Positions 5,752-61,484 of a stretch of DNA of 64,000 nucleotides are shown piece by piece. The notes beneath the pieces were generated by a model that saw nothing but the letters and a program-made list of their open reading frames with translations, was not told where the DNA came from and did no database searches. Position 1 is the first letter of the stretch. Every line of letters starts with the position of its first letter. The stretch is from IMG/VR virus record IMGVR_UViG_3300006805_000023. The stretch is one strand, 5' to 3'. This stretch comes from a virus. Its lineage: Duplodnaviria > Caudoviricetes. The position numbers were made by a program, and so were the translations under genes.

Positions 5752-5780
5752 TTGACAAGCGCTAAAGTCTGTGTTAGATT
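5752..5780 (+). promoter_or_regulatory. Sigma70-type promoter, leaderless geometry
   Basis: TTGACA-17-TAGATT-5nt-ATG 5786. Confidence 0.8.
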
Positions 5781-5785
5781 TCTGC

Positions 5786-6652
5786 ATGTTCAACAAATAC
5801 AAGACCTCCCGTCAGCTGGAAACCCTCGCCGGTCAGATCACCGGCTCCACCCTCAAGTATCAACCAGAGAGCTATGAACCCTCCTACAAGGCTTGGTCCG
5901 ACTTCTATTACACGTTCCCCGGCTGGAACACCACCGCCAGCTTCGTGAAGCGCTTCGAGAAGCTGGCGACCTTCTTCCCTCAACTGGAAGAACAACGCCC
6001 CGTGCTGGTTCAGGTGCTGGAGCTGGCAAAGCAGCTGGCCGAATTCGCGGCCTCCGAAAAGACTCGCCTCGCCGCCAAGCGCGCCAAGCTGGCTGAACCC
6101 AAGCCAGTGCTGGAGTCCGGCGTCAGGCTCGAACAGGCCGACCCCGAAGTCGTCAAGACCCTTCTGGAAGGACTCGCCTCCAACCGCGCTGCCTTCATCG
6201 AAAGCGCCCGCAACAACAAGGCCGAGCAGATCAAGGCCACCCTCGTCAAAGCTCTCGACGGCACCTTCGCCGCCAGCATCAGCGCTCACAGCAGCCTCCG
6301 CTCCCAGGTCTTTGCCGAATGGGGCCTTTACAATGACGACGCCACCTGCGAGAAGCTCGCCGCCAGACTCAGCAGCCAGAAGGTGGTGGACGGCTACCTC
6401 ACCAAGGCTCAGAAGGAAGCCGAATTCGAGTTCGATTCCTACGTGATCAAGCTGGCTGGTAAAGTGACCCGCGAGGGCGCGACCAAGGTCTTGAAGGCTA
6501 CCATGGTGGGCAACGTCTGGGCCGGAGTCCTCTCGGTCGAGACCGACACCAACCACCAGACCTGGAACACTCAGTGCATCCTCAACACTTCCCCTCTGGG
6601 CAAGTTGTTCCACCAGTGGCCCACCATTCTGAAAAGCCTGACGGCCAAGTAA
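5786..6652 (+). CDS. Hypothetical early protein
   Basis: Start MFNKYKTS at 5786; C-biased codon usage typical of this window. Confidence 0.8.
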   Translation: MFNKYKTSRQLETLAGQITGSTLKYQPESYEPSYKAWSDFYYTFPGWNTTASFVKRFEKLATFFPQLEEQRPVLVQVLELAKQLAEFAASEKTRLAAKRAKLAEPKPVLESGVRLEQADPEVVKTLLEGLASNRAAFIESARNNKAEQIKATLVKALDGTFAASISAHSSLRSQVFAEWGLYNDDATCEKLAARLSSQKVVDGYLTKAQKEAEFEFDSYVIKLAGKVTREGATKVLKATMVGNVWAGVLSVETDTNHQTWNTQCILNTSPLGKLFHQWPTILKSLTAK

Positions 6653-6656
6653 GTAT
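6650..6656 (+). promoter_or_regulatory. Putative late promoter box TAAGTAT
   Basis: 5 nt upstream of GTG 6662. Confidence 0.5.
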
Positions 6657-6661
6657 GCGGC

Positions 6662-7087
6662 GTGAAGAACATCGTCGCCGCCGGAATCTGTTATTACTGC
6701 CCCTCAACCGGAAAGGTCTTGTTGGGGCAGCGCGGTGCGGACAGTGATGGGGGCTCCGGCGAGTGGGCAGCCTTCGGCGGTAAGCTCGAAGACGGCGAGA
6801 CTCTGATACAATGCGCAGTCCGCGAGGTTCAGGAGGAGACCGGTTATAAGGAGTCCAAGCCGATGGCGCTCCGCCTCAACTACCGCTCGACCTGGACCCA
6901 CGGCGACGTCCGGGTGGTGTTTTACTGCTTCATGCAAGCAGTGCCTGCCGAGTTTAAGCTCCCACAGCTCGACCAGACAGAGCACTCCAAAGCGGGCTGG
7001 TTCCCGGCGGACAAAATGCCAGCTGGGCTGCTCAAGCCGTTCGCCAGCAACCTCGACGTGGGAGCCCTCAAGCGCCTGAAGGTCTAG
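6662..7087 (+). CDS. NUDIX hydrolase
   Basis: Nudix box GGKLEDGETLIQCAVREVQEETG. Confidence 0.92.
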   Translation: MKNIVAAGICYYCPSTGKVLLGQRGADSDGGSGEWAAFGGKLEDGETLIQCAVREVQEETGYKESKPMALRLNYRSTWTHGDVRVVFYCFMQAVPAEFKLPQLDQTEHSKAGWFPADKMPAGLLKPFASNLDVGALKRLKV

Positions 7088-7088
7088 C

Positions 7089-7117
7089 TTGCTGAGGCGG
7101 TCGGCCTCGATTACTTT
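7089..7117 (+). promoter_or_regulatory. Possible sigma70-type promoter, leaderless geometry
   Basis: TTGCTG-17-TACTTT-5nt-ATG 7123. Confidence 0.5.
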
Positions 7118-7122
7118 GTGGG

Positions 7123-8247
7123 ATGACCTCCCGTTATCAGGACCCCAAAATCGCCGAGATCTTCTCGGAAGACCGCAAGTATACCCTCTGGCTCCTCATC
7201 GAGGAGGCCTTGGTTAAAGCCCTCGCTCCGGAGGATGTCAGCAGACCGTTCTCGTCCTTCATCCAGGGGCTCCAGGGTGTTAATCTGACCAGCTTCATCA
7301 ACGCCTGCAAACACGAGGAGCAAGGTACCAACCACGACGTCGGGGCGTTCCTGAACGTGCTGGAAGCCAGGGCTGACGGCTGCGTTTCTACCTTCCTGCA
7401 TCGCGGCTTCACATCGTCCGATGTGGTTGACACTGCGACCAGTCTGCAGATTCATGCTGCCCTCAGGCATATCGAGTGGCTCAAACACGACTTCAAGGAG
7501 GCCATCACGAACTCTGGAGACGCCGCGTGCGTCGGCTATACCCACGGGATGCCAGCCGAGGCGATGTGCCTCAGTGCGCGCTGGCAGCGCTGTTTCAACG
7601 AGCTGCGCGACCTACCACGGATCAAGCCGCATCTGACTGGACCACTCGGAGACGCCAAGCATCTTGACATCGACACCAGGATCGAGCTGGCACGACTTCT
7701 CGGTTTCCATAACGATGGTGGAAAAGGCAGAGCGCCAGCCCAGCCCAACTACATGCAGTGCTCGGAGCGGTCGGACTTTGCCAGACTGGCGTCGTCCATC
7801 GCGATCAACGGGAGCGTGCTTGCCAAGATGGCGCTCGACATGCGCCTGTTAGTGTTCAAGGGCGAAATGGGACGGGAAAAGGGGCACCACGAAATGGGCT
7901 CATCCGCGATGCCTCACAAAACCAACCCAGCTGATCTCGAAAAGGTTTGTGGTCTGGCCCGTGTGTTACGCGGCAACGCCATGGTCGCCATGGAGAACAT
8001 TGAGCTCTGGTTGGAGCGCGACATCAGCCACAGCTCGACCGAGCGCATGTGGCTTCCCGACTCCTTCCACCTTTACTGCCACATGTTGACCATTATGACC
8101 AAGGCCGTCGTGAACTACAAGCCGACCCACGAAATGGGAGAGGCTCTAGTTGATAATGAGAAGGACCTGCACACCGCAGCCAACGTGGTTCTGCTGCAAA
8201 AGCAGGGGATGGGACGCCGTGCCGCTTGGCTCAAAGTCAAAGGTTAA
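7123..8247 (+). CDS. purB: Adenylosuccinate lyase family protein (short, 374 aa)
   Basis: TNHDV, FTSSDVVDTA, GYTHG, signature SSAMPHKTNP, WLERDISHSSTERMWLPD. Confidence 0.9.
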   Translation: MTSRYQDPKIAEIFSEDRKYTLWLLIEEALVKALAPEDVSRPFSSFIQGLQGVNLTSFINACKHEEQGTNHDVGAFLNVLEARADGCVSTFLHRGFTSSDVVDTATSLQIHAALRHIEWLKHDFKEAITNSGDAACVGYTHGMPAEAMCLSARWQRCFNELRDLPRIKPHLTGPLGDAKHLDIDTRIELARLLGFHNDGGKGRAPAQPNYMQCSERSDFARLASSIAINGSVLAKMALDMRLLVFKGEMGREKGHHEMGSSAMPHKTNPADLEKVCGLARVLRGNAMVAMENIELWLERDISHSSTERMWLPDSFHLYCHMLTIMTKAVVNYKPTHEMGEALVDNEKDLHTAANVVLLQKQGMGRRAAWLKVKG

Positions 8248-8732
8248 CCGACGTCTCCGGGAGGGCTCGTCGGCACTGGCTCCGGCGATCCAATGAAGTT
8301 CTCCCAAGAGGGAAATGGGAGGGAGCCAGCTGGAACGTTGGCAAGGAACCACGTCCAGCCCTCGTGCAGCCAAATCAACGTGGCCTCAACAGTTTGTTGC
8401 CCGTTGGTCTTGAACGGGGACTTGAACAGCTTCTCCAGGCTCCCTACCTCCAAACGCAGGACCGGGACCGTCTCATACCCGAACTTCTCCTCCAGAGCGA
8501 TCCGCCAGATGTTGGCGAAGTTGTCGTCCCCGTAGTACATGCAGCGTCCGGCCTCTTGCAGGGCCGGAAGTCCGGCTATCGCCAGATACTTGAAAAAGGC
8601 CAGGACCGTCGGGTAATGGAACCGTTTCCCGTACTGACCAAGCCACCCGGTGTTGTCATCCTGGACCGGCGAAGCCGTGTACAGCAGGGGCAGCGTGGTG
8701 TACGGGTTCGAGACTGGGTCAAACTGGTTCAC
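8244..8732 (-). CDS. Hypothetical protein
   Basis: ORF track; follows the tail tube gene. Confidence 0.65.
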   Translation of the reverse strand: MNQFDPVSNPYTTLPLLYTASPVQDDNTGWLGQYGKRFHYPTVLAFFKYLAIAGLPALQEAGRCMYYGDDNFANIWRIALEEKFGYETVPVLRLEVGSLEKLFKSPFKTNGQQTVEATLIWLHEGWTWFLANVPAGSLPFPSWENFIGSPEPVPTSPPGDVG

Positions 8733-8752
8733 TCAGTCGGGATTGGGAAGGC

Positions 8753-9316
8753 CTAGACGTCCAGGATCTTAGGATAGCAGATGTCGCAGGACAGCTCGAC
8801 GTTGATCATCGCCGGAGCGTCGGACTCGTGGTCGAACTCGTCCGGGGTGAGCTTCTTGATGAACAGGCCACGGCAGACCCACACGCGGTTGCGGTAGGCA
8901 CCAGAGTCAACGATGCCAGGGGCAGCAGCCGGGTCCATCCCAGGAGGGAGCAGCATCAGGCTGCCACGTCGCTTGTAGTCGCGAGCGCGACCGATTGCGC
9001 CGGTGGCTGGGTTGTACACCTGCCTGAACCAAGCAGCCAGGCGATCCAGCACGTCGGTGTCAAGGTAGTCGTAGAAGGAGATCGCCATGTTTTCAGCCGA
9101 CTCCATGGCACCCGCATATTTGACGGGAGTGTTGAAGGCCTTGATGGCTGGGTTGGTAACGCCGATCCCTGGAGGACGCACGTTCTTAACAGACAGAACC
9201 AGCAAATCACCTCCGGTGTCGGGGATGATGAGCGCGAAGTTGGATTTGCGTTGCGGTTCGAACGCTCCGTTCTGAGCCAACAGCGAGTTCCCAGCGAAAG
9301 GTGACATGAGTGCCAT
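8753..9316 (-). CDS. Tail tube protein (T4 gp19-like)
   Basis: True start MALMSPF at 9316; FEPQRKSNF, SFYDY...W..QVYNPATGAIG..RDYKR pattern of gp19-like tubes. Confidence 0.8.
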   Translation of the reverse strand: MALMSPFAGNSLLAQNGAFEPQRKSNFALIIPDTGGDLLVLSVKNVRPPGIGVTNPAIKAFNTPVKYAGAMESAENMAISFYDYLDTDVLDRLAAWFRQVYNPATGAIGRARDYKRRGSLMLLPPGMDPAAAPGIVDSGAYRNRVWVCRGLFIKKLTPDEFDHESDAPAMINVELSCDICYPKILDV

Positions 9317-12477: not shown

Positions 12478-14058
12478 ATGCTGCCCTCCACCTCTCCCGT
12501 CCCCTCCCCACACGATCTGGTTTACCTTGAGCTGATGCGCCGTATCCGAGCGCACGGTGACTACCGGATGGAACGCACCGGCACTGGTGCCTATTCGTTG
12601 TTCGCCCAGCAACTGCGCTTCGACCTGACGGACGGTAGCTTCCCGCTGCTGACTACTAAGAAGGTCCACCTGCGCTCGATCATCCACGAGCTGCTCTGGT
12701 TCCTGAAGGGCGACACCAACATCAAGTACCTCAACGACAACGGCGTGACGATCTGGGATGAATGGGCCAACCCGGACGGCGACCTAGGACCTTGTTATGG
12801 CTATCAATGGCGTCAATGGGGGGAGTGGTCCACTCAGCGTTTGGAAAAGAAGGCACCTGTCGTTAAACGTCTGGAGGATGAAATCCCGCCTTTCTGCGAC
12901 TACGATGTTTCCCTCCCTGAAGCCCCGGTCATTACCGATGCTGGCAAGGACGAGCGCAACCGCGCTCTCGTAAAGGTCGTGTTTCCACGTTCCTGCTACT
13001 CGTACACGATTCGAAAGGACCACGCCGAGAGGGGAGTGCGCGACCCCTATGCACCGTCGAAGTGCGGAGTTGGCTGTCTCGGCGAGGATGAGAGGACGCT
13101 TGGGATTCCGGAGACAGTCCTCAAAAACCTCATCGCTTGCTGGAACAAAATGATGGAACGCTGCTACGATCCGAAGTGCAAGGAATACAGGTTCTATGGT
13201 GCCATCGGAGTCAAGGTGTGCCGTCGCTGGCTCTGCAGATCCGCCTTCCTGAGCGACGCCACCAAGCTCCCGTGGTTTGAGCAAAAGTCGAAGGATCTGG
13301 CTGGATACCAGCTAGACAAGGACCATCTGGGAGACAGCACTTATTACTCGCCGACCACCTGCGCTTGGGTTCCTGAGTGGGTTAACTCGGCTTACGCTCA
13401 TACGCAGCCCTTCGTGGCGACAGCTCCGGACGGCACAGAGTATTATCACATTTCGCCTAGCGTGTTTGGCTCGATGCATCAATTGTCGGGGCATTCGATC
13501 TGCCGTTGTTTGCGTGGTGAGAGGCCTCACCATTTCGGCTGGAAGTTCTGCCCTGTTGAGGATCGAGGTCTGCGCTTTAGCTCCCCCACTGATCAGATCA
13601 AGCAGCTGGTCGAGGGCATCGTCAAAAGCCCTTACGGGAGACGCCACATTGTGTCGGCCTGGAATGTGAAAGACTTGCCCACGATGAAGCTCCCACCCTG
13701 CCATTGCCTGTTCCAATGCTTCGTCTCCTCGAAGGGCCGCCTGAGCCTCCACCTTTACCAGCGCTCCGCTGACTACCTGCTGGGCGTCCCCTTTAACATC
13801 GCGAGCTATGCGTTGCTGCTGCTCATGCTGGCTCAGGCCACTGGGAACAAGCCAGGCGAGCTGGTCATCACGTTCGGCGACGTCCACCTCTACTCCAACC
13901 ATCTGGAGCAGGCCGACCTCCAGCTGTCCCGCGCCCCGTTCGGAGCGCCTCGAATGGAGATCGGTGACTCAAAGGACATCTTCGGTTTCAAGTATGAGGA
14001 CTTCAAACTGCTGGACTACACCTCCCATGCTTCCATCAAGGCCGCCATCGCCGTTTAG
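12478..14058 (+). CDS. thyA: Thymidylate synthase with a large in-frame insertion
   Basis: ERTGTG, FPLLTTKKV, ELLWFLKG, IWDEW, DLGPCYGYQW, RRHIVSAWN, LPPCH, YQRSAD, GVPFNIASY, DVHLYSNH. Confidence 0.95.
   Translation: MLPSTSPVPSPHDLVYLELMRRIRAHGDYRMERTGTGAYSLFAQQLRFDLTDGSFPLLTTKKVHLRSIIHELLWFLKGDTNIKYLNDNGVTIWDEWANPDGDLGPCYGYQWRQWGEWSTQRLEKKAPVVKRLEDEIPPFCDYDVSLPEAPVITDAGKDERNRALVKVVFPRSCYSYTIRKDHAERGVRDPYAPSKCGVGCLGEDERTLGIPETVLKNLIACWNKMMERCYDPKCKEYRFYGAIGVKVCRRWLCRSAFLSDATKLPWFEQKSKDLAGYQLDKDHLGDSTYYSPTTCAWVPEWVNSAYAHTQPFVATAPDGTEYYHISPSVFGSMHQLSGHSICRCLRGERPHHFGWKFCPVEDRGLRFSSPTDQIKQLVEGIVKSPYGRRHIVSAWNVKDLPTMKLPPCHCLFQCFVSSKGRLSLHLYQRSADYLLGVPFNIASYALLLLMLAQATGNKPGELVITFGDVHLYSNHLEQADLQLSRAPFGAPRMEIGDSKDIFGFKYEDFKLLDYTSHASIKAAIAV
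12820..13590 (+). mobile_element. HNH-type homing endonuclease-like module inserted in frame in thyA
   Basis: About 257 aa between QWRQW and DQI; W..M..RCY...Y..YG..GV.VC.RW, LDKD...Y.P.TC.W...N and a C-terminal NUMOD1-like segment; visibly more A/T at third codon positions. Confidence 0.75.
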
Positions 14059-15526: not shown

Positions 15527-16819
15527 ATGGCACCCGCTACAACACCACTCCCACAAAACGTCCTCCCACCACGCGTCCTCAGCCCCGGCAAGATCGCCGC
15601 AGTCCTGGATGCTGGCTACGGCTCCTCTTCCAAAGGCCTCGTGTCGGCCTGGATCACCAAGAACGAGCGCCCTGACTTCCTGCTCACCGCCAACGGTCGC
15701 AATTCCTCGCACACCGTGGTGGATAACTCCCTGAAGGCCTCCCGCGAGGCCATGACACCATGCCAGCTCAAGGGCGAGTTCGTCTTCAAGGTCCTGCCGG
15801 TCGGAGCCTTCTACAACAAGTGGAAGGGCTACAACCCGATCATCTACATTGGCCCCGGTGCCGCTTTTACGGTCGAGGACCTCGTCAAGGAAATGAAGGC
15901 CTGCGAGCTGGACAAAACGCAGGTCTGGGTCCACCCGCTGGCATCGGTCGTCACGGAGGCCGACATCGGCTATGAAAACGGCACTTGGGACTTCGACGGC
16001 AACCCACGCCCGCAGATCGACCACGACTCCGGCACCACCAAGCACGGCACCACGGGCTCCGGCGTCGGAGCAGCTCGTGCCAAGAAGTCTCTGCGCAAAG
16101 GCAAGCAGTGGTATGATGTCTCCGACCAGCCTACGATGGGGCAGAGCGGCCTGATGTTCGCCGACACCTTCGAAGAGGCCGTCCTGAAGCGCCTGGCTCT
16201 CGGCAAGACCGGCCTGCTGGACGGTTCTCAGGGTTACCTGCTGAGCCTCTACGGGAAGTTCTTCCCACACTGCACTTCACGCCCCGTCACCCTGGCCTCA
16301 TTCTTCGCCGACATCAACCTCCCGGTCAGTGTGATCGGCAACGTCTGCGCGGTGGCCCGCACCTTCCCAATCCGGATCGCCAGCGTGCGCTATTTCCTGG
16401 ACAACCAGCCCGTCACCCTCGCCGAGAAGGTCGAAGCGGAGTCGAGGGGCCTGTTCGTCAATACTGTGGACTCCAACTCCGGTGGCTGGTATCAGGACCA
16501 ACGCGAGTTGACTTGGGAGCAGGTCAGCGAACAGGCCGGACGCCACATCGAGCCTCAGCTCACCAGTCTGACCAAGCTGCCACGTCGGATCGCCACGTGG
16601 TCCAAGGCCGCGATCCGCGATTTCCTGCTGCACAACGCCCCGCCGTGCGGCTGCAAGACTTACTTGTTTGTGACCTTCACGAATTATCTGAAGGGCTCCG
16701 AGATGAAGCACTGGATGCACCAGAACATCCATGAACTGGACGACGCCGTAACCGAGGTGCTACTGTCCGACTCCCCGGAGACTGACAGCGTGCTGCCACT
16801 GGTGCGGGACTTTGAGTGA
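15527..16819 (+). CDS. purZ: PurZ-type adenylosuccinate synthetase homologue (putative 2-amino-dA synthetase)
   Basis: DAGYGSSSKG (Ser where PurA has the Asp of GDEGKG), NSSHT, KVLP.G, HGTTGSG, SQGYLLSL..FFPHCTSR, ARTFPIR, NSGGWYQDQRELTWEQ, LTSLTKLPRR, TFTNYL. Confidence 0.8.
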   Translation: MAPATTPLPQNVLPPRVLSPGKIAAVLDAGYGSSSKGLVSAWITKNERPDFLLTANGRNSSHTVVDNSLKASREAMTPCQLKGEFVFKVLPVGAFYNKWKGYNPIIYIGPGAAFTVEDLVKEMKACELDKTQVWVHPLASVVTEADIGYENGTWDFDGNPRPQIDHDSGTTKHGTTGSGVGAARAKKSLRKGKQWYDVSDQPTMGQSGLMFADTFEEAVLKRLALGKTGLLDGSQGYLLSLYGKFFPHCTSRPVTLASFFADINLPVSVIGNVCAVARTFPIRIASVRYFLDNQPVTLAEKVEAESRGLFVNTVDSNSGGWYQDQRELTWEQVSEQAGRHIEPQLTSLTKLPRRIATWSKAAIRDFLLHNAPPCGCKTYLFVTFTNYLKGSEMKHWMHQNIHELDDAVTEVLLSDSPETDSVLPLVRDFE

Positions 16820-24706: not shown

Positions 24707-25594
24707 ATGATGGACCGAAAGATTATCATCGGGGGCCTCCCCCACCACGGCAAGACCACCATAGCAGGCATCATCGCGAGCAGGTTCGGAGTGACCTTCG
24801 CGAACACCTCGGACACCATCTACGAGCAGGTCGCCAAGGACTACGGCAAGACCGTCGAGGAGGTCCACGCGATGGATAAGGAGAAGCTGCGCCCGGAGCT
24901 GATCTTCGTGGGCGACACTCTGTGCAAGGTGCACGGCCTGGCCTATCTGACCCTGAAGCAGCTCGAAAAGCACGACGTGGTGTGCGGCGTCCGCAAGCCG
25001 CAGGAGCTGGCTCTGGTCCGGGCCGCCTATCCCAACTGCCTGTTTCTATGGGTGATCCGCCCCGGCTATCCGACGATCAAGGATAGCACCCAGCTTTCCC
25101 ACAAGGACGCTGATCTGGTGATCATGAACGCGGGATCGGTCTCCGACCTGGAGTCACAGGTAACGTCTGGACTGGTCAACAACAGCCTGGGTCTGAGCCA
25201 CCCCGGCAACAGCTTGTGGAACCTGCTGCACTGGTTCGCCTTCCAGCGTGACTGGAACGCACTGGAGCGCACCAACTTCATGCAGGCCTTTGAAACCCTG
25301 CTGTTCATCACCGGCAAGTCCTGCCCGTGCGCCATCGAGTTCCAGGCGATCAAGAAGGTCCTTCCGCCTCCGGCTGGGCACGACGAGTTCTGGAACTGGA
25401 CTTTGCTGGTGCACGACTGGGTCAACTATAAGCGCGGCGTGCCTACCCACTGGGACTGGACCCAGGGCCATCCAGGGTTCAAGATCCTCAAGGAGGCGTT
25501 CTCATCTGGAACCGCCGAAGGCATCCTGTCCGGCACCTCTGTCCCAACCCAACCAGCAACCGACCTCACTTACTGCGCGCCATGCTCAAAATAA
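24707..25594 (+). CDS. dNMP-kinase-like P-loop domain fused to an Erv1/Alr-like helical domain
   Basis: GGLPHHGKTT...R.EL..VG...VR...E kinase pattern; C-terminal LWNLLHW...CPC..EF...W....HDWVN..RG. Confidence 0.6.
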   Translation: MMDRKIIIGGLPHHGKTTIAGIIASRFGVTFANTSDTIYEQVAKDYGKTVEEVHAMDKEKLRPELIFVGDTLCKVHGLAYLTLKQLEKHDVVCGVRKPQELALVRAAYPNCLFLWVIRPGYPTIKDSTQLSHKDADLVIMNAGSVSDLESQVTSGLVNNSLGLSHPGNSLWNLLHWFAFQRDWNALERTNFMQAFETLLFITGKSCPCAIEFQAIKKVLPPPAGHDEFWNWTLLVHDWVNYKRGVPTHWDWTQGHPGFKILKEAFSSGTAEGILSGTSVPTQPATDLTYCAPCSK

Positions 25595-26355: not shown

Positions 26356-26650
26356 GCCGCTGGTCCTAGCCTGGACGGCACCGGCACCCCCGGATTCAAC
26401 CTGCAGCTACGATCACTCCACGGCGGAGACGCTGTTTGGGCGCTTCTTGATAACCTGGAAGGGCTGGAAGATTCTGCCCGAAAATCTGGCGTGGGGTGAG
26501 AGCCCAGGCGATCCTGGATACACGCTTGATGAGACCCCGTGGGGTGAGTTTGAGTGCAGGGGGTGGGACTCCCTAGAAGAAGTCCAGAGGTGGGCGGAGG
26601 ACGAGCTGGAGCGTCGGATGCGGCTCCAGCTCGAAAAGTTCACCGCTTAG
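26309..26650 (+). CDS. Hypothetical protein
   Basis: Start moved to MSATPQQ; overlaps the upstream gene. Confidence 0.55.
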   Translation: MSATPQQAATLPTSAKPLVLAWTAPAPPDSTCSYDHSTAETLFGRFLITWKGWKILPENLAWGESPGDPGYTLDETPWGEFECRGWDSLEEVQRWAEDELERRMRLQLEKFTA

Positions 26651-27663
26651 AGGATCGAGAGCCTGCTGGTTGACAGGTGTTCCATGACGTCCTTGCGATC
26701 CTGATCACACCACCGGCAGTCGGCCATGTTTTGAAACACCAGATCGTGCTCCTTGGCGACGTTGGTACCCAGAAGCACCGGGTTGTCAGAGTTGATGGTG
26801 ACTGGGATCTGCAGGCGTGCTGCCACAACCAGGGCCGTGTTAAGCTCCTGCTTGGAGATGGTCTCAGTCCGCAGGCAGGCCGTCGGGCAGACCTCGAAAG
26901 TGACCTTGCGCAGCCGCTCCATCTCTGGCTCATTCAGCTTGATGTGAGCAAGCGATTTGAGCAGGTCCAGGCCGTGGCCGATCCGCGTAACGCCCCCGAT
27001 GACGTCCAGGACGTTCAGGACGTTCATCCCAGTGTCACGTGCTTCACCGACGTGGTAGGTCAGGAACAGACCCTTTGAGTAGGCTTCGTGGAGGGGAGGC
27101 AGCATGTTCCTGGCAATCCAGTCCTTGTCGCGCTCCTGACCGGTCTCGGTCCCGCAGATGTCGAAGCCGTCGGCACCGGCCTCAATGGCAGCACGCACGG
27201 AGCCCCACAGGACCGAGACCGGTTCACGCCGGTCCGCGCACACGATCAAACGGGTCGAAATCCCGTGGCAGTCACCGGCGTCGCTGAGTCCCTGACGGGC
27301 CGCCCGGATCAGTGGCACCAGCATGTCTGGGCCACGCCGGTAGGGATCGAAGCGCATGTCGATGTGCTGCAGCTTACCGCCGGTCATCAGGTACTGGTGG
27401 ACCACGGCCTCGAAGCATGAGCGCCTCACGGCGTCCGGACCCTGCTGAATGTCCTCCACCATGGCGTGAGGACCGCTCTTACGGCTCAGAAACTCATCAT
27501 GAGTGGTCGTGTTGTGCTTGGTCTTGGTCATCAATTCCTCCAGTTCAATCGAGCTGAGCATGGCCAGCTTGCGCCCGGACCGGTAGGCCAGCTCCCAGAG
27601 GATGTGTGGTGGAGTTGAGCCACCGAGGTGGCAGTGAAAGTCACAGTATTTAGTTTGCTGCAT
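26647..27663 (-). CDS. Adenosine/AMP deaminase family protein
   Basis: DFHCHLGGS, GFDICG, TYHVGE, RIGHG, FEVCPT, INSDNP; start MQQTKY at 27663. Confidence 0.9.
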   Translation of the reverse strand: MQQTKYCDFHCHLGGSTPPHILWELAYRSGRKLAMLSSIELEELMTKTKHNTTTHDEFLSRKSGPHAMVEDIQQGPDAVRRSCFEAVVHQYLMTGGKLQHIDMRFDPYRRGPDMLVPLIRAARQGLSDAGDCHGISTRLIVCADRREPVSVLWGSVRAAIEAGADGFDICGTETGQERDKDWIARNMLPPLHEAYSKGLFLTYHVGEARDTGMNVLNVLDVIGGVTRIGHGLDLLKSLAHIKLNEPEMERLRKVTFEVCPTACLRTETISKQELNTALVVAARLQIPVTINSDNPVLLGTNVAKEHDLVFQNMADCRWCDQDRKDVMEHLSTSRLSIL

Positions 27664-28630
27664 AGACGGTTCCAAGTTTGATGCGTTCCTCGATTTTTGT
27701 GCGGTTGACTTCGGCCAGTTTCTCCACTGTGATCCCAAGCTCGTTGGCGGTGGCTACCAGATAAAACAGCACGTCGCTAAGCTCGTCAAGCATCCGGTCT
27801 TTTGCGCGGTGGCCGAGATCACTGGCGCTGACCTGGGAGCTGTTGATACGGCGCATCACCTTTTGAACCACTCCGAGGACCTCGCCGCCTTCGCTGGCGA
27901 GCCCGGAGGTCGTGTAAACCAGTCCGGACGGGTACTGGGCTACTCGTTTGACCCAGCCCTGGTAGGCGTCGAGCTGAGCAATCATGGTGTCCTCCTCAAG
28001 GGTGAACTCCATCGTGCAGCCACGGTCCGGCGGTGGCGAGGTGCGCAGCCGCATCCCGAAGGACACCGCCTCCTTGGCGAGGAAGGCCACCAAGTGCGTG
28101 CTGGTGAGGTCTGAGTCCTGCACAGTGAGCACTCCAGTTTCCAGCTCGACCGTGGCGGTCGGGAAGTTCTTCTGCAGCAAGATGGCGAGCTTGCCAGCTA
28201 CCACCTGAAGGGACGGCCCGAATGACACCGTGGCCCCGTTCTCGAACAGAGATGAGAGGTCTGGGCGCGTGTAGCCCTCACCCTTGATCCACTTACCAGT
28301 AGGGTCGGCCAGATGGCCGGTCTCCGGGTCGCCCTTGGTGCAGTTTGAGCGGTGCACCTCGTCCCAGGCCAGCTGCATCACCGGAGCGATGCCGAGCCGG
28401 TTGGCAAGCTGGAAGATGAACACCAGCGCGTCGATCAGACAGTCGGTCGTGTGGGTCAGGCGCTCCCGTTCCGTCGGGAGGTCCTTGGCCTCGTCCAGCT
28501 CGGTCTGCAGCTCCTCCTTGAAAAAGGCCTGGTAGGTTTGAACGACGCTGGCGTCGAAGACGGGTTTGCCTGCCAGCGGGATTCTCCACTTTTCGGCAAA
28601 GGCGCGGATGTCGGATAGTTGATTGACCAT
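27650..28630 (-). CDS. Tandem all-alpha NTP pyrophosphatase (DR2231/PRA-PH-like domain plus MazG-like domain)
   Basis: N-domain EEL..E...D.LID...WDEVHRSNCTKG...GKWIKG.GY..PDL; C-domain GLASEGGEV...DELSDVLFY...N..KI..R. Confidence 0.82.
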   Translation of the reverse strand: MVNQLSDIRAFAEKWRIPLAGKPVFDASVVQTYQAFFKEELQTELDEAKDLPTERERLTHTTDCLIDALVFIFQLANRLGIAPVMQLAWDEVHRSNCTKGDPETGHLADPTGKWIKGEGYTRPDLSSLFENGATVSFGPSLQVVAGKLAILLQKNFPTATVELETGVLTVQDSDLTSTHLVAFLAKEAVSFGMRLRTSPPPDRGCTMEFTLEEDTMIAQLDAYQGWVKRVAQYPSGLVYTTSGLASEGGEVLGVVQKVMRRINSSQVSASDLGHRAKDRMLDELSDVLFYLVATANELGITVEKLAEVNRTKIEERIKLGTVYAAN

Positions 28631-28654
28631 CCACACCAGAAAGCACTATAAGCC

Positions 28655-60778: not shown

Positions 60779-61005
60779 ACGACCCGGCCCCCAGCTACGA
60801 CTTCATCATCTCACGCTTCCTGGCACACCGGCTCGCCCGGTTTGTCAGGCAGGTCGATCAAGAGACCAGCTACTACTCAACCCCGTCCGTCCATGGTCGC
60901 CCCGGCTACCTCCGGCGTGACGGGGTCCGCACCAAGCTCGTGAACCGTGCTTATCGGCGCTACTCAGCTACCGTCCCGACCCTCAGGACGATCGTCGTGG
61001 GCTAG
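60775..61005 (+). CDS. Hypothetical basic protein
   Basis: Start MNDPAPS; ATGA overlap. Confidence 0.55.
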   Translation: MNDPAPSYDFIISRFLAHRLARFVRQVDQETSYYSTPSVHGRPGYLRRDGVRTKLVNRAYRRYSATVPTLRTIVVG

Positions 61006-61484
61006 ATGGCCTTCATGCCGTGCCGGTGAGCGCGGCCAAGGTTCTTCTTGAGCTTGTTGACCACCGCAAGGTCCAGGTCAAGACCCAGGCCGTAGGCTAT
61101 CGAGAGCGCCCGGATGAGCACATCGGCTAGCTCCTCTTCGAAGTTGGCCTTGTCCAACTTACGCACCGCCTCGGTGGCTTCGCTGGCCTCCGAGTGGATC
61201 AGGGCGACATGGGCCAGCAGCTTGTGAGTAGCAGCATGATCGTTGATGTCCTTCGGGAAGTCGTCCGGCGTGAAGGCCTCCCAGCCATTGGCGACGTTGA
61301 TCCGCTGGGCGACTCCACCGATCCCAGTCAGAATTCCCTCGGCAAAGGCCTCGATCTCTTCGTCGGTCGGAGGTGTCGAAGCAAGCTTGGTCAGTGGTGG
61401 CAGGCCGGTCGGGGTGTCAGTGATCGGAGGAGCGTCGCCGGTAGAAACAGGGACGCCAAAAGGGTACTCAGCAGTGCGGGTCAT
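61002..61484 (-). CDS. MazG-like nucleotide pyrophosphohydrolase
   Basis: ALIHSEASEATEA.RK....EELADVLIR.L......D...AV..K...N..R..RHG.K. Confidence 0.85.
   Translation of the reverse strand: MTRTAEYPFGVPVSTGDAPPITDTPTGLPPLTKLASTPPTDEEIEAFAEGILTGIGGVAQRINVANGWEAFTPDDFPKDINDHAATHKLLAHVALIHSEASEATEAVRKLDKANFEEELADVLIRALSIAYGLGLDLDLAVVNKLKKNLGRAHRHGMKAI

Follow-up and report, generated by a model that had tools for sequence, protein, structure and literature searches.

The window analysed here, a stretch of 64,000 nucleotides (nt) of the IMG/VR virus record IMGVR_UViG_3300006805_000023 (Duplodnaviria; Caudoviricetes), encodes a PurB-like adenylosuccinate lyase and comes from a 218-kb T4-like phage. 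Z (2-aminoadenine) replaces adenine in the DNA of Z phages, and PurZ is the enzyme for this swap. On balance, the lyase would seem to convert N6-succino-2-amino-2'-deoxyadenylate (dSMP) to the Z deoxynucleoside monophosphate (dZMP) for the phage's own PurZ, which is encoded in the same window. In the Z pathway as described, this step is assigned to host PurB, and on this point the published accounts agree with the initial annotation. With an apparently intact lyase of its own, the phage is probably independent of the host enzyme at this second step of Z synthesis. That dSMP is the substrate, that the phage DNA contains Z and that the gene brings a benefit over host PurB is what we infer from the evidence below.

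Identity of the lyase

The open reading frame (ORF) at 7123-8247 has codon-position GC contents like those of real genes in the window (GC1/GC2/GC3 of 0.59/0.41/0.74). Lyase_1 (PF00206) is the sole Pfam family matched, with 64 bits against a cut-off of 27, and the best NCBIfam model by far is TIGR00928 (purB), with 195.3 bits over model positions 1-382 of 436. The signature loop GSSAMPHKTNP occupies residues 259-269 and aligns with the same loop of the PurB structures 1C3U and 8JBD. Its SSAMPHKTNP part (residues 260-269, nt 7900-7929) had led the initial annotation to a short adenylosuccinate lyase, an identification borne out by the purB score, the length of 374 amino acids (aa) and the missing PF10397 domain.

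Compared with cellular PurB proteins, to which it is 28-36% identical, the lyase has nine extra residues around 199-208 and is eight residues short ahead of residue 170. The chain stops just past the first helix of the ADSL_C region, so that about 55 C-terminal residues are missing; the cellular proteins (n = 115) run on for a median of 58 residues. ADSL_C is present in all listed cellular matches and absent from the four close relatives of the lyase. These relatives, of 375-388 aa and 53-80% identity, were the only ones among 5.8 billion sequences, followed by cellular PurBs at about 36%. Within the resulting clade of five, the short form and all key residues are kept. A megablast search of window positions 6000-9000 against INPHARED gave no match.

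Active site, predicted fold and predicted oligomeric state

Alignments to 8JBD, 1C3U and phage and cellular homologues showed that the key positions H71, H93, T97-S98-S99-D100, T140-H141, Q212 and S260-S261 are kept, as are K266, N268, E273, R299, S304 and R308, all of them invariant or nearly so. One-to-one equivalents are found in PurB of Bacillus subtilis and Thermotoga maritima, namely His68, His89, Thr93/Ser94, His141, Gln212, Ser262/263, Lys268, Asn270, Glu275, Arg301 and Arg310. In the mutagenesis and structural literature on these two enzymes, His141 is the catalytic histidine, the signature loop holds the catalytic serine, and His68, His89, Thr93/Ser94, Gln212, Lys268, Asn270, Glu275, Arg301 and Arg310 bind the substrate.

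The AlphaFold2 model conforms to the three-domain, mostly helical fold of the superfamily, with a mean predicted local distance difference test (pLDDT) value of 87.6 and a predicted template modelling (pTM) score of 0.87; confidence is weaker at the inserted loop 199-208 and at the signature loop. Foldseek hits at ranks 1-49 were all adenylosuccinate lyases, the best being Bacillus anthracis PurB (2pfm_A, query-based TM-score of 0.82). Prediction with two copies gave a score of 0.66, versus 0.00 for the best of three controls, with at least 98% contact agreement between runs and a partner pLDDT of at least 89. This mark of 0.66 was attained by 20 of 30 solved one-chain pairs and by 1 of 23 solved single chains. 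Since tetramers of relatives have been solved, the homodimer result may reflect likeness only. The predicted interface holds segments 138-142, 173-175, 209-212 and 293-301, which are those of the active site. Judged from the alignments and the model, the lyase is apparently catalytically intact.

The loss of about 55 C-terminal residues, together with a score below the TIGR00928 cut-off, could instead be read as decay, the truncated lyase being an inactive remnant. However, the short form and the key residues are kept in five clade members, and the short form recurs in other phage lineages (Ghobes gp36, L012/13, L014, L016 and P0165); the model is confident and a dimer interface is predicted. 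Decay is thus very improbable. Should it be active, the short form would be the smallest natural adenylosuccinate lyase scaffold and would be useful for probing the role of the C-terminal domain.

The PurZ-type synthetase

The synthetase of the window scores 161.3 bits with the PurZ model NF038379 versus 72 and 45 bits with PurA models, and its best PDB sequence matches are the PurZ enzymes of phages phiVC8 and S-2L. In its P-loop, GSSSKG, Ser33 (15623-15625) stands where PurA has Asp13, and the loop aligns with GSTGKG of phiVC8 and S-2L PurZ. Serine at the Asp13 position was reported in all 147 phage sequences of the PurZ group (PMC12884076). No Asp-type PurA was found among the window proteins.

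Two related phages, L001 and L002, also have a Ser-type PurZ, and in both the order of ORF288 (a conserved gene), the NUDIX hydrolase gene and the lyase gene is kept. About 8 kb downstream, both carry genes for ThyA, a methyltransferase, a DUF1353 protein and a PurA-family protein, and L002 carries T4-type capsid and prohead protease genes.

The divergence of the synthetase leaves room for a different product. With a score well under the model cut-off, about 70 aa more than characterised PurZ enzymes and GSSSKG in place of GSTGKG, it could act together with the short lyase on a different acceptor nucleotide or sugar and make a purine nucleotide other than dZMP, which would be a new modification route. 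The lyase itself shows an Ala-to-Pro replacement in a motif invariant in 115 cellular relatives and lacks the C-terminal domain. Nevertheless, the best alignments of the synthetase are to PurZ structures and to the PurZ model, and Ser for Asp13 is kept in it; moreover, the Ala-to-Pro change is no mark of new chemistry, since viral lyases linked to PurA have it too. We regard such a route as quite unlikely.

Co-occurrence of the lyase with PurZ, PurA and DatZ

The association of PurB-like genes with purZ, which the initial annotation had taken as a sign of a link, was surveyed in INPHARED and IMG/VR. A tblastn search of INPHARED with the lyase matched 33 records. The annotated isolates comprise five records of Hiyaa-group Streptomyces phages and six of Ghobes-group Gordonia phages. 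Hiyaa encodes a PurZ-family synthetase (gp67) and a PurB-like protein (gp76), and Ghobes a synthetase (gp50) and a lyase (gp36) that is also short (377 aa). Most other matches are unannotated fragments. In two Acinetobacter records, the gene is annotated not as purB but as pcaB (3-carboxy-cis,cis-muconate cycloisomerase). The 'purB' of Microcystis phage MaAM05 (L008, MW495066.1, 188706-201677) was rejected as a counter-example, because it is surrounded by metG, mtaB, nikR, glgX and ftsH and looks like cyanobacterial chromosome. The classical PurZ siphoviruses (the phiVC8 group, S-2L and the SH-Ab 15497 group), which dominate the list of INPHARED PurZ matches, gave no PurB-like gene at E ≤ 1e-3 in the tblastn search.

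Starting from the lyase in IMG/VR, the records of 12 of 19 loci contained a Ser-type PurZ, no more than 10 kb away in 11 cases and elsewhere in one; two loci had an Asp-type PurA (L014, and L015 via L028), and five were fragments of 9-45% completeness with neither. These counts and those that follow are descriptive, given that lineages are not independent and that 10-kb flanks miss distant genes. Starting from PurZ, the best 80 of at least 558 matching loci were examined (L039-L118). The lyase was found within 10 kb in 9 of the 80, two of these being weak or partial, and elsewhere in the record for 3 of 10 large PurZ records checked. All 12 lyase-bearing PurZ loci belong to the 28 loci most like the window PurZ, mostly on large contigs. 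DatZ was present at 39 of the remaining 52 PurZ loci and never with the lyase at the same locus (10 kb).

Nearly all phage lyases of this kind are thus accompanied by a PurA-family synthetase of the phage, which is PurZ in most cases and PurA in some, and among Z phages they belong to lineages without DatZ. The homologues lie mostly in PurZ-bearing records, and the association is far above chance in several lineages, in agreement with the expectation of the initial annotation.

Other patterns were seen in the same survey. PurB goes with a long PurZ on large contigs and DatZ with a short PurZ on contigs of about 40-57 kb. In L057-L060, four IMG/VR contigs each around 150 kb long, a long PurZ-like gene is followed after about 1.3 kb by a PurB-like gene and after roughly another 2 kb by a MazG-type gene; this module is compact, whereas the layout in the window is dispersed. 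In L036 (4260-6462), an Asp-type (GDEGKG) PurA gene overlaps a viral-type PurB gene near genes for dihydroorotate dehydrogenase and orotidine monophosphate decarboxylase/phosphoribosyltransferase, and in L014 and L028 (the record of L015) an Asp-type PurA gene also lies near a viral-type PurB gene. Such phage PurA and PurB pairs look like an AMP-branch module distinct from the Z module.

Viral sequence marks and specificity

The only consistent difference between viral and cellular lyases was found at Pro174 (7642-7644), which stands in place of the Ala in SGAVG, a motif that does not vary among the 115 closest cellular proteins. Proline is present in 14 of 16 PurZ-linked viral lyases, in 3 of 3 PurA-linked ones and in 0 of 115 cellular ones. 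The two PurZ-linked lyases that retain Ala (L019 and L026) cluster with cellular PurB. Among the best 149 cluster representatives by the viral profile, 46 have the Pro and 19 are short; the contexts of four short representatives that were looked up were phage-like or uninformative, and one of the four genes overlaps an Asp-type PurA gene beside pyrimidine-synthesis genes. Since PurA-linked viral lyases carry Pro174 too, this residue and the truncation mark viral lineages and not Z chemistry.

In the tree, the window clade (support 100/100) stands beside L012/L013 (95/90) within a viral cluster of 14 rows, of which at least 12 are PurZ-linked. With long branches and a narrow cellular sample, the tree did not discriminate between a single origin of the viral lyases and several. 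A wider scenario would be that viral PurB-like proteins are an old virus-borne lineage, with Pro for Ala at the interface and repeated C-terminal loss, which travels with PurA-family synthetases and, in large Z phages lacking DatZ, became dSMP-preferring, making the route from dGTP to the Z deoxynucleoside diphosphate (dZDP) fully phage-encoded together with a MazG-type enzyme and a deoxynucleoside monophosphate (dNMP) kinase. This wider scenario is considered improbable.

Dedication of the lyase to dSMP, as proposed in the initial annotation, found no support, as no Z-specific residue pattern appeared and the same lyase type also stands beside Asp-type PurA. The lyase could accordingly be a general purine auxiliary metabolic gene with no tie to Z, boosting host cleavage of adenylosuccinate and of phosphoribosylaminoimidazole-succinocarboxamide (SAICAR) to supply IMP and AMP for ATP and deoxynucleoside triphosphates (dNTPs). 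Its substrate-binding residues do not differ from those of cellular PurB, which would fit such a role, as would the missing Z-specific pattern and the pairing of the viral type with Asp-type PurA (L014, L015/L028 and L036, in the last case beside pyrimidine-synthesis genes). Against it, the window has a Ser-type PurZ and no Asp-type PurA, its adenosine-deaminase-family gene fits the removal of adenine nucleotides better than their production, and the IMG/VR lyase loci count 12 with PurZ versus 2 with PurA (n = 19). A purely auxiliary role is therefore judged unlikely.

Proposed role in Z synthesis

In the preferred reading, conversion of dSMP to dZMP for the phage's PurZ, the lyase would be active as the usual oligomer with composite active sites and would act after the PurZ-type synthetase, removing fumarate from dSMP to give dZMP. 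MazG-type pyrophosphatases would supply dGMP from dGTP, and a dNMP-kinase fusion protein would convert dZMP to dZDP. Most of the route to the Z deoxynucleoside triphosphate (dZTP) would then be phage-encoded, so that host PurB supply would no longer be limiting.

Several findings weigh against this reading. The 195.3 bits of the lyase are below the TIGR00928 equivalog cut-off of 326.2, and the Pfam search gave no match to ADSL_C (PF10397), the C-terminal domain being missing. The synthetase is also under its cut-off (161.3 versus 300 bits for NF038379), and its gene lies 7.3 kb downstream of the lyase gene, with which it does not share an operon. No residue pattern specific to PurZ-linked lyases was found in the comparison of 16 PurZ-linked, 3 PurA-linked and 115 cellular sequences, and the same viral type pairs with Asp-type PurA in at least three phage lineages (L014, L015/L028 and L036). 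Finally, host PurB is sufficient in the Z phages studied, and a lyase is missing from two large PurZ records that are nearly complete (91% and 93%); the lyase gene is therefore not required for the Z pathway. As for specificity, host PurB accepts dSMP, so that no dSMP specialisation may be needed.

The proposal that a phage PurB frees the Z pathway from the host consequently stands in part. The Ser-type PurZ, the co-occurrence and the intact-looking lyase speak for it, while dedication to dSMP found no support and the NUDIX link is weak.

Probable promoter upstream of the lyase gene

The spacer between the end of the NUDIX gene and the start of the lyase gene is 35 nt and contains a promoter-like site with leaderless geometry. 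This site agrees with the sigma-70 consensus at 6 of 12 positions and was not called by a generic sigma-70 scan. The pattern TTG-N20-TAnnnT-N5-ATG, however, occurs 13 times in the window versus 0.10 expected, and 0 of 100 shuffles reached 13. The ATGs of this class are mostly called gene starts (5786, 7123, 10161, 20332, 38227 and 56627). Equivalent sites precede the orthologous lyase genes, with TTGCGT-17-TAAAGT-5-ATG in L001 and TTGCGT-17-GACCTT-5-ATG in L002. Since the class is over-represented and kept in relatives, the lyase gene is in all likelihood served by a weak promoter of its own, and transcription from promoters of this class would begin at the ATG or beside it. The candidate leaderless promoter of the initial annotation is in this way supported in spite of the negative generic scan.

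A hairpin at 7093-7109, overlapping the site, was weak and no better than in shuffled sequences (z of −0.98), and no late-type TANNTAT motif was found before the lyase gene. A strong sigma-70-like promoter of the TTGACA version precedes the gene upstream of NUDIX in the window phage and in L001 and L002. The lyase would thus be transcribed from its own weak leaderless-type promoter, and ORF288 and NUDIX appear to form a transcription unit apart from it.

The 13 sites of the class, TTGAC(A)-17-TAnnnT exactly 5 nt before an ATG, lie for example at 5752, 10127, 20298, 30138, 39457, 56593 and 61910. The spacers of the class are often alike (AAGCG...GTGT), and the class also occurs in L001 and L002. 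Taken as promoters, these sites imply leaderless mRNAs for many non-structural genes of the phage.

The NUDIX gene and ORF288

The NUDIX gene was placed directly ahead of the lyase gene in the initial annotation, which is the case, with an intact Nudix box and a clear Pfam score. The box, GKLEDGETLIQCAVREVQEETGY at 6779-6847, is a perfect match to GX5EX7REUXEEXGU by regular expression. The PDB sequence matches are MutT/MTH1-type enzymes, and the protein is probably a nucleotide pyrophosphohydrolase. No substrate-defined subfamily could be assigned, every NCBIfam equivalog scoring 17-35 bits versus cut-offs of 95-475.

ORF288 gave no Pfam or NCBIfam match and no usable ESM Atlas match, and its predicted structure is poor. 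Its orthologues in L001 and L002 are 283 and 292 aa, and the gap to the NUDIX gene is 9 nt in all three phages.

A role for NUDIX in the Z pathway, clearing dATP or supplying dGMP in place of DatZ or MazZ, was also considered. It has in its favour that NUDIX adjoins the lyase in three related phages, that no DatZ homologue was found in the window, and that the box is intact in a protein resembling MutT/MTH1-type (d)NTP pyrophosphohydrolases. The known enzymes DatZ (HD), MazZ (MazG), DUF550/DUF5664 and Dut-like DutZ (PMC12884076) differ from NUDIX in fold, though NUDIX could in principle hydrolyse dATP or dGTP likewise. Yet the adjacency says little, because the whole region is syntenic in the relatives, and NUDIX is part of the ORF288 unit, the lyase gene very probably having a promoter to itself. 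The window-type NUDIX was found at 0 of 80 other PurZ loci and 0 of 17 other IMG/VR lyase loci. The closest phage NUDIX domains are N-terminal parts of head/portal-module proteins, in PurZ and non-PurZ phages alike, and for pool editing the phage can already draw on its two MazG-type genes and its deaminase-family gene. Such a role is accordingly doubtful, and so is the sanitising of the dNTP pool for Z by NUDIX, the adjacency being confined to this clade. Burkholderia phages Bm1 and BCSR129, which are PurZ phages, were set aside as a NUDIX-PurZ link because the NUDIX domain overlaps head-module genes there, as in non-PurZ phages.

Comparison with described systems

Cellular PurB of the B. subtilis/T. 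maritima type (1C3U, 2PFM, 2X75, 8JBD) shares with the window lyase the fold, the signature GSSAMPHKxNP, the key residues and the predicted interface. Among phages, Ghobes gp36 ('adenylosuccinate lyase') and Hiyaa gp76 ('PurB-like adenylosuccinate lyase', 457 aa) are, like the window lyase, encoded together with an annotated PurZ-family synthetase. An [ST]GP[VL]G motif is common to all three, and Ghobes gp36 ends at nearly the same alignment position. The two proteins are, however, only 27-31% identical to the window lyase and lie on other tree branches, and Ghobes and Hiyaa, unlike the T4-like jumbo phage of the window, are small actinophages that carry a Dut-like enzyme and a synthetase of the PurZ0 type. 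PurB-like lyases are therefore already annotated publicly in Ghobes-like and Hiyaa-like Z phages, and by sequence the window lyase is a distant new member of a known, uncharacterised kind, its identity to the other phage lyases found not exceeding 33%.

In phiVC8, S-2L and SH-Ab 15497, PurZ, MazZ or DUF550, and DatZ are used together with host PurB and guanylate kinase. The window likewise has a Ser-type PurZ and MazG-type genes, and the chemistry would be expected to be the same, but those phages have no PurB-like gene, whereas the window phage has PurB, with no DatZ in the window. The phage-encoded Z parts described so far are PurZ, MazZ/DUF550, DatZ, DpoZ, Dut-like, DUF5664 and NDT-like enzymes. 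Neither a phage PurB nor NUDIX is mentioned in the full texts of the Z-pathway literature searched. The present analysis adds the survey, the separation of PurZ loci with a lyase from those with DatZ, the sequence marks of the viral lyases and the conservation of the promoter. If the proposed function is correct, part of the Z phages, mainly those with large genomes and no DatZ, would have a more self-sufficient pathway than the textbook version with host PurB, which would bear on host range, on how Z synthesis continues once the host is shut off and on the assembly of minimal gene sets with which engineered cells could make Z-DNA.

Other nucleotide genes in the window

The features of the window are collected in Table 1.

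Table 1. Coordinates of the lyase gene, its upstream region and the nucleotide-metabolism genes of the window
Feature	Position	Strand	Basis or remark
Strong sigma-70-like promoter, TTGACA-17-TAGATT	5752..5780	+	TG before −10; 5 nt before ATG 5786; heads ORF288-NUDIX
Conserved gene, 288 aa (ORF288), directly upstream of NUDIX	5786..6652	+	Orthologues in L001 and L002
NUDIX hydrolase, 141 aa, MutT/MTH1-like	6662..7087	+	PF00293, 72.9 bits (cut-off 21.1); phrog_1198
Promoter-like site, TTGCTG-17-TACTTT	7089..7117	+	5 nt before lyase ATG, leaderless geometry; over-represented class, kept in L001 and L002
PurB-like adenylosuccinate lyase, 374 aa, without C-terminal ADSL_C part	7123..8247	+	Pfam, NCBIfam, alignments, predicted structure
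Divergent PurZ-type synthetase, 430 aa	15527..16819	+	NF038379 (PurZ), 161.3 bits; phrog_1211; tblastn to known PurZ phages
P-loop kinase with weak dNMP-kinase signal, fused to Erv1/ALR-like domain; candidate for dZMP to dZDP	24707..25594	+	phrog_139, 6e-14
Adenosine-deaminase-family gene	26647..27738	-	PF00962, 95.9 bits; TIGR01430, 101.6 bits (below its cut-off)
328-aa protein with C-terminal MazG domain; candidate dNTP pyrophosphatase	27650..28636	-	PF12643, 32.7 bits; PF03819, 26.8 bits
Second MazG-type pyrophosphohydrolase, 160 aa; candidate MazZ (dGTP to dGMP)	61002..61484	-	PF03819, 30.5 bits

The Pfam matches of the kinase fusion (AAA_17, DNMK and Evr1_Alr) are all weak. The candidate MazZ is 45% identical to S-2L MazZ over 42 aa by blastp (E of 6e-5). 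Within the 64 kb of the 218-kb genome, no match to S-2L DatZ (best E of 0.64) and no HD family were found, and no PolA-type polymerase (DpoZ), the best E with Ghobes PolA being 0.12.

The deaminase-family gene overlaps the end of the upstream 328-aa MazG gene, and a similar deaminase was seen at just 1 of 80 other PurZ loci (L065). For this PurZ phage, in whose window DatZ is not seen, the pair may be the module that removes adenine nucleotides.

The ThyA ORF at 12478-14058 (+) encodes 526 aa and matches its Pfam model in two stretches, while in L001 and L002 the protein is uninterrupted at 288-289 aa. PHROG matches to HNH endonucleases occur among the window proteins, pointing to an endonuclease insertion in the window ThyA that is in frame and about 240 aa long.

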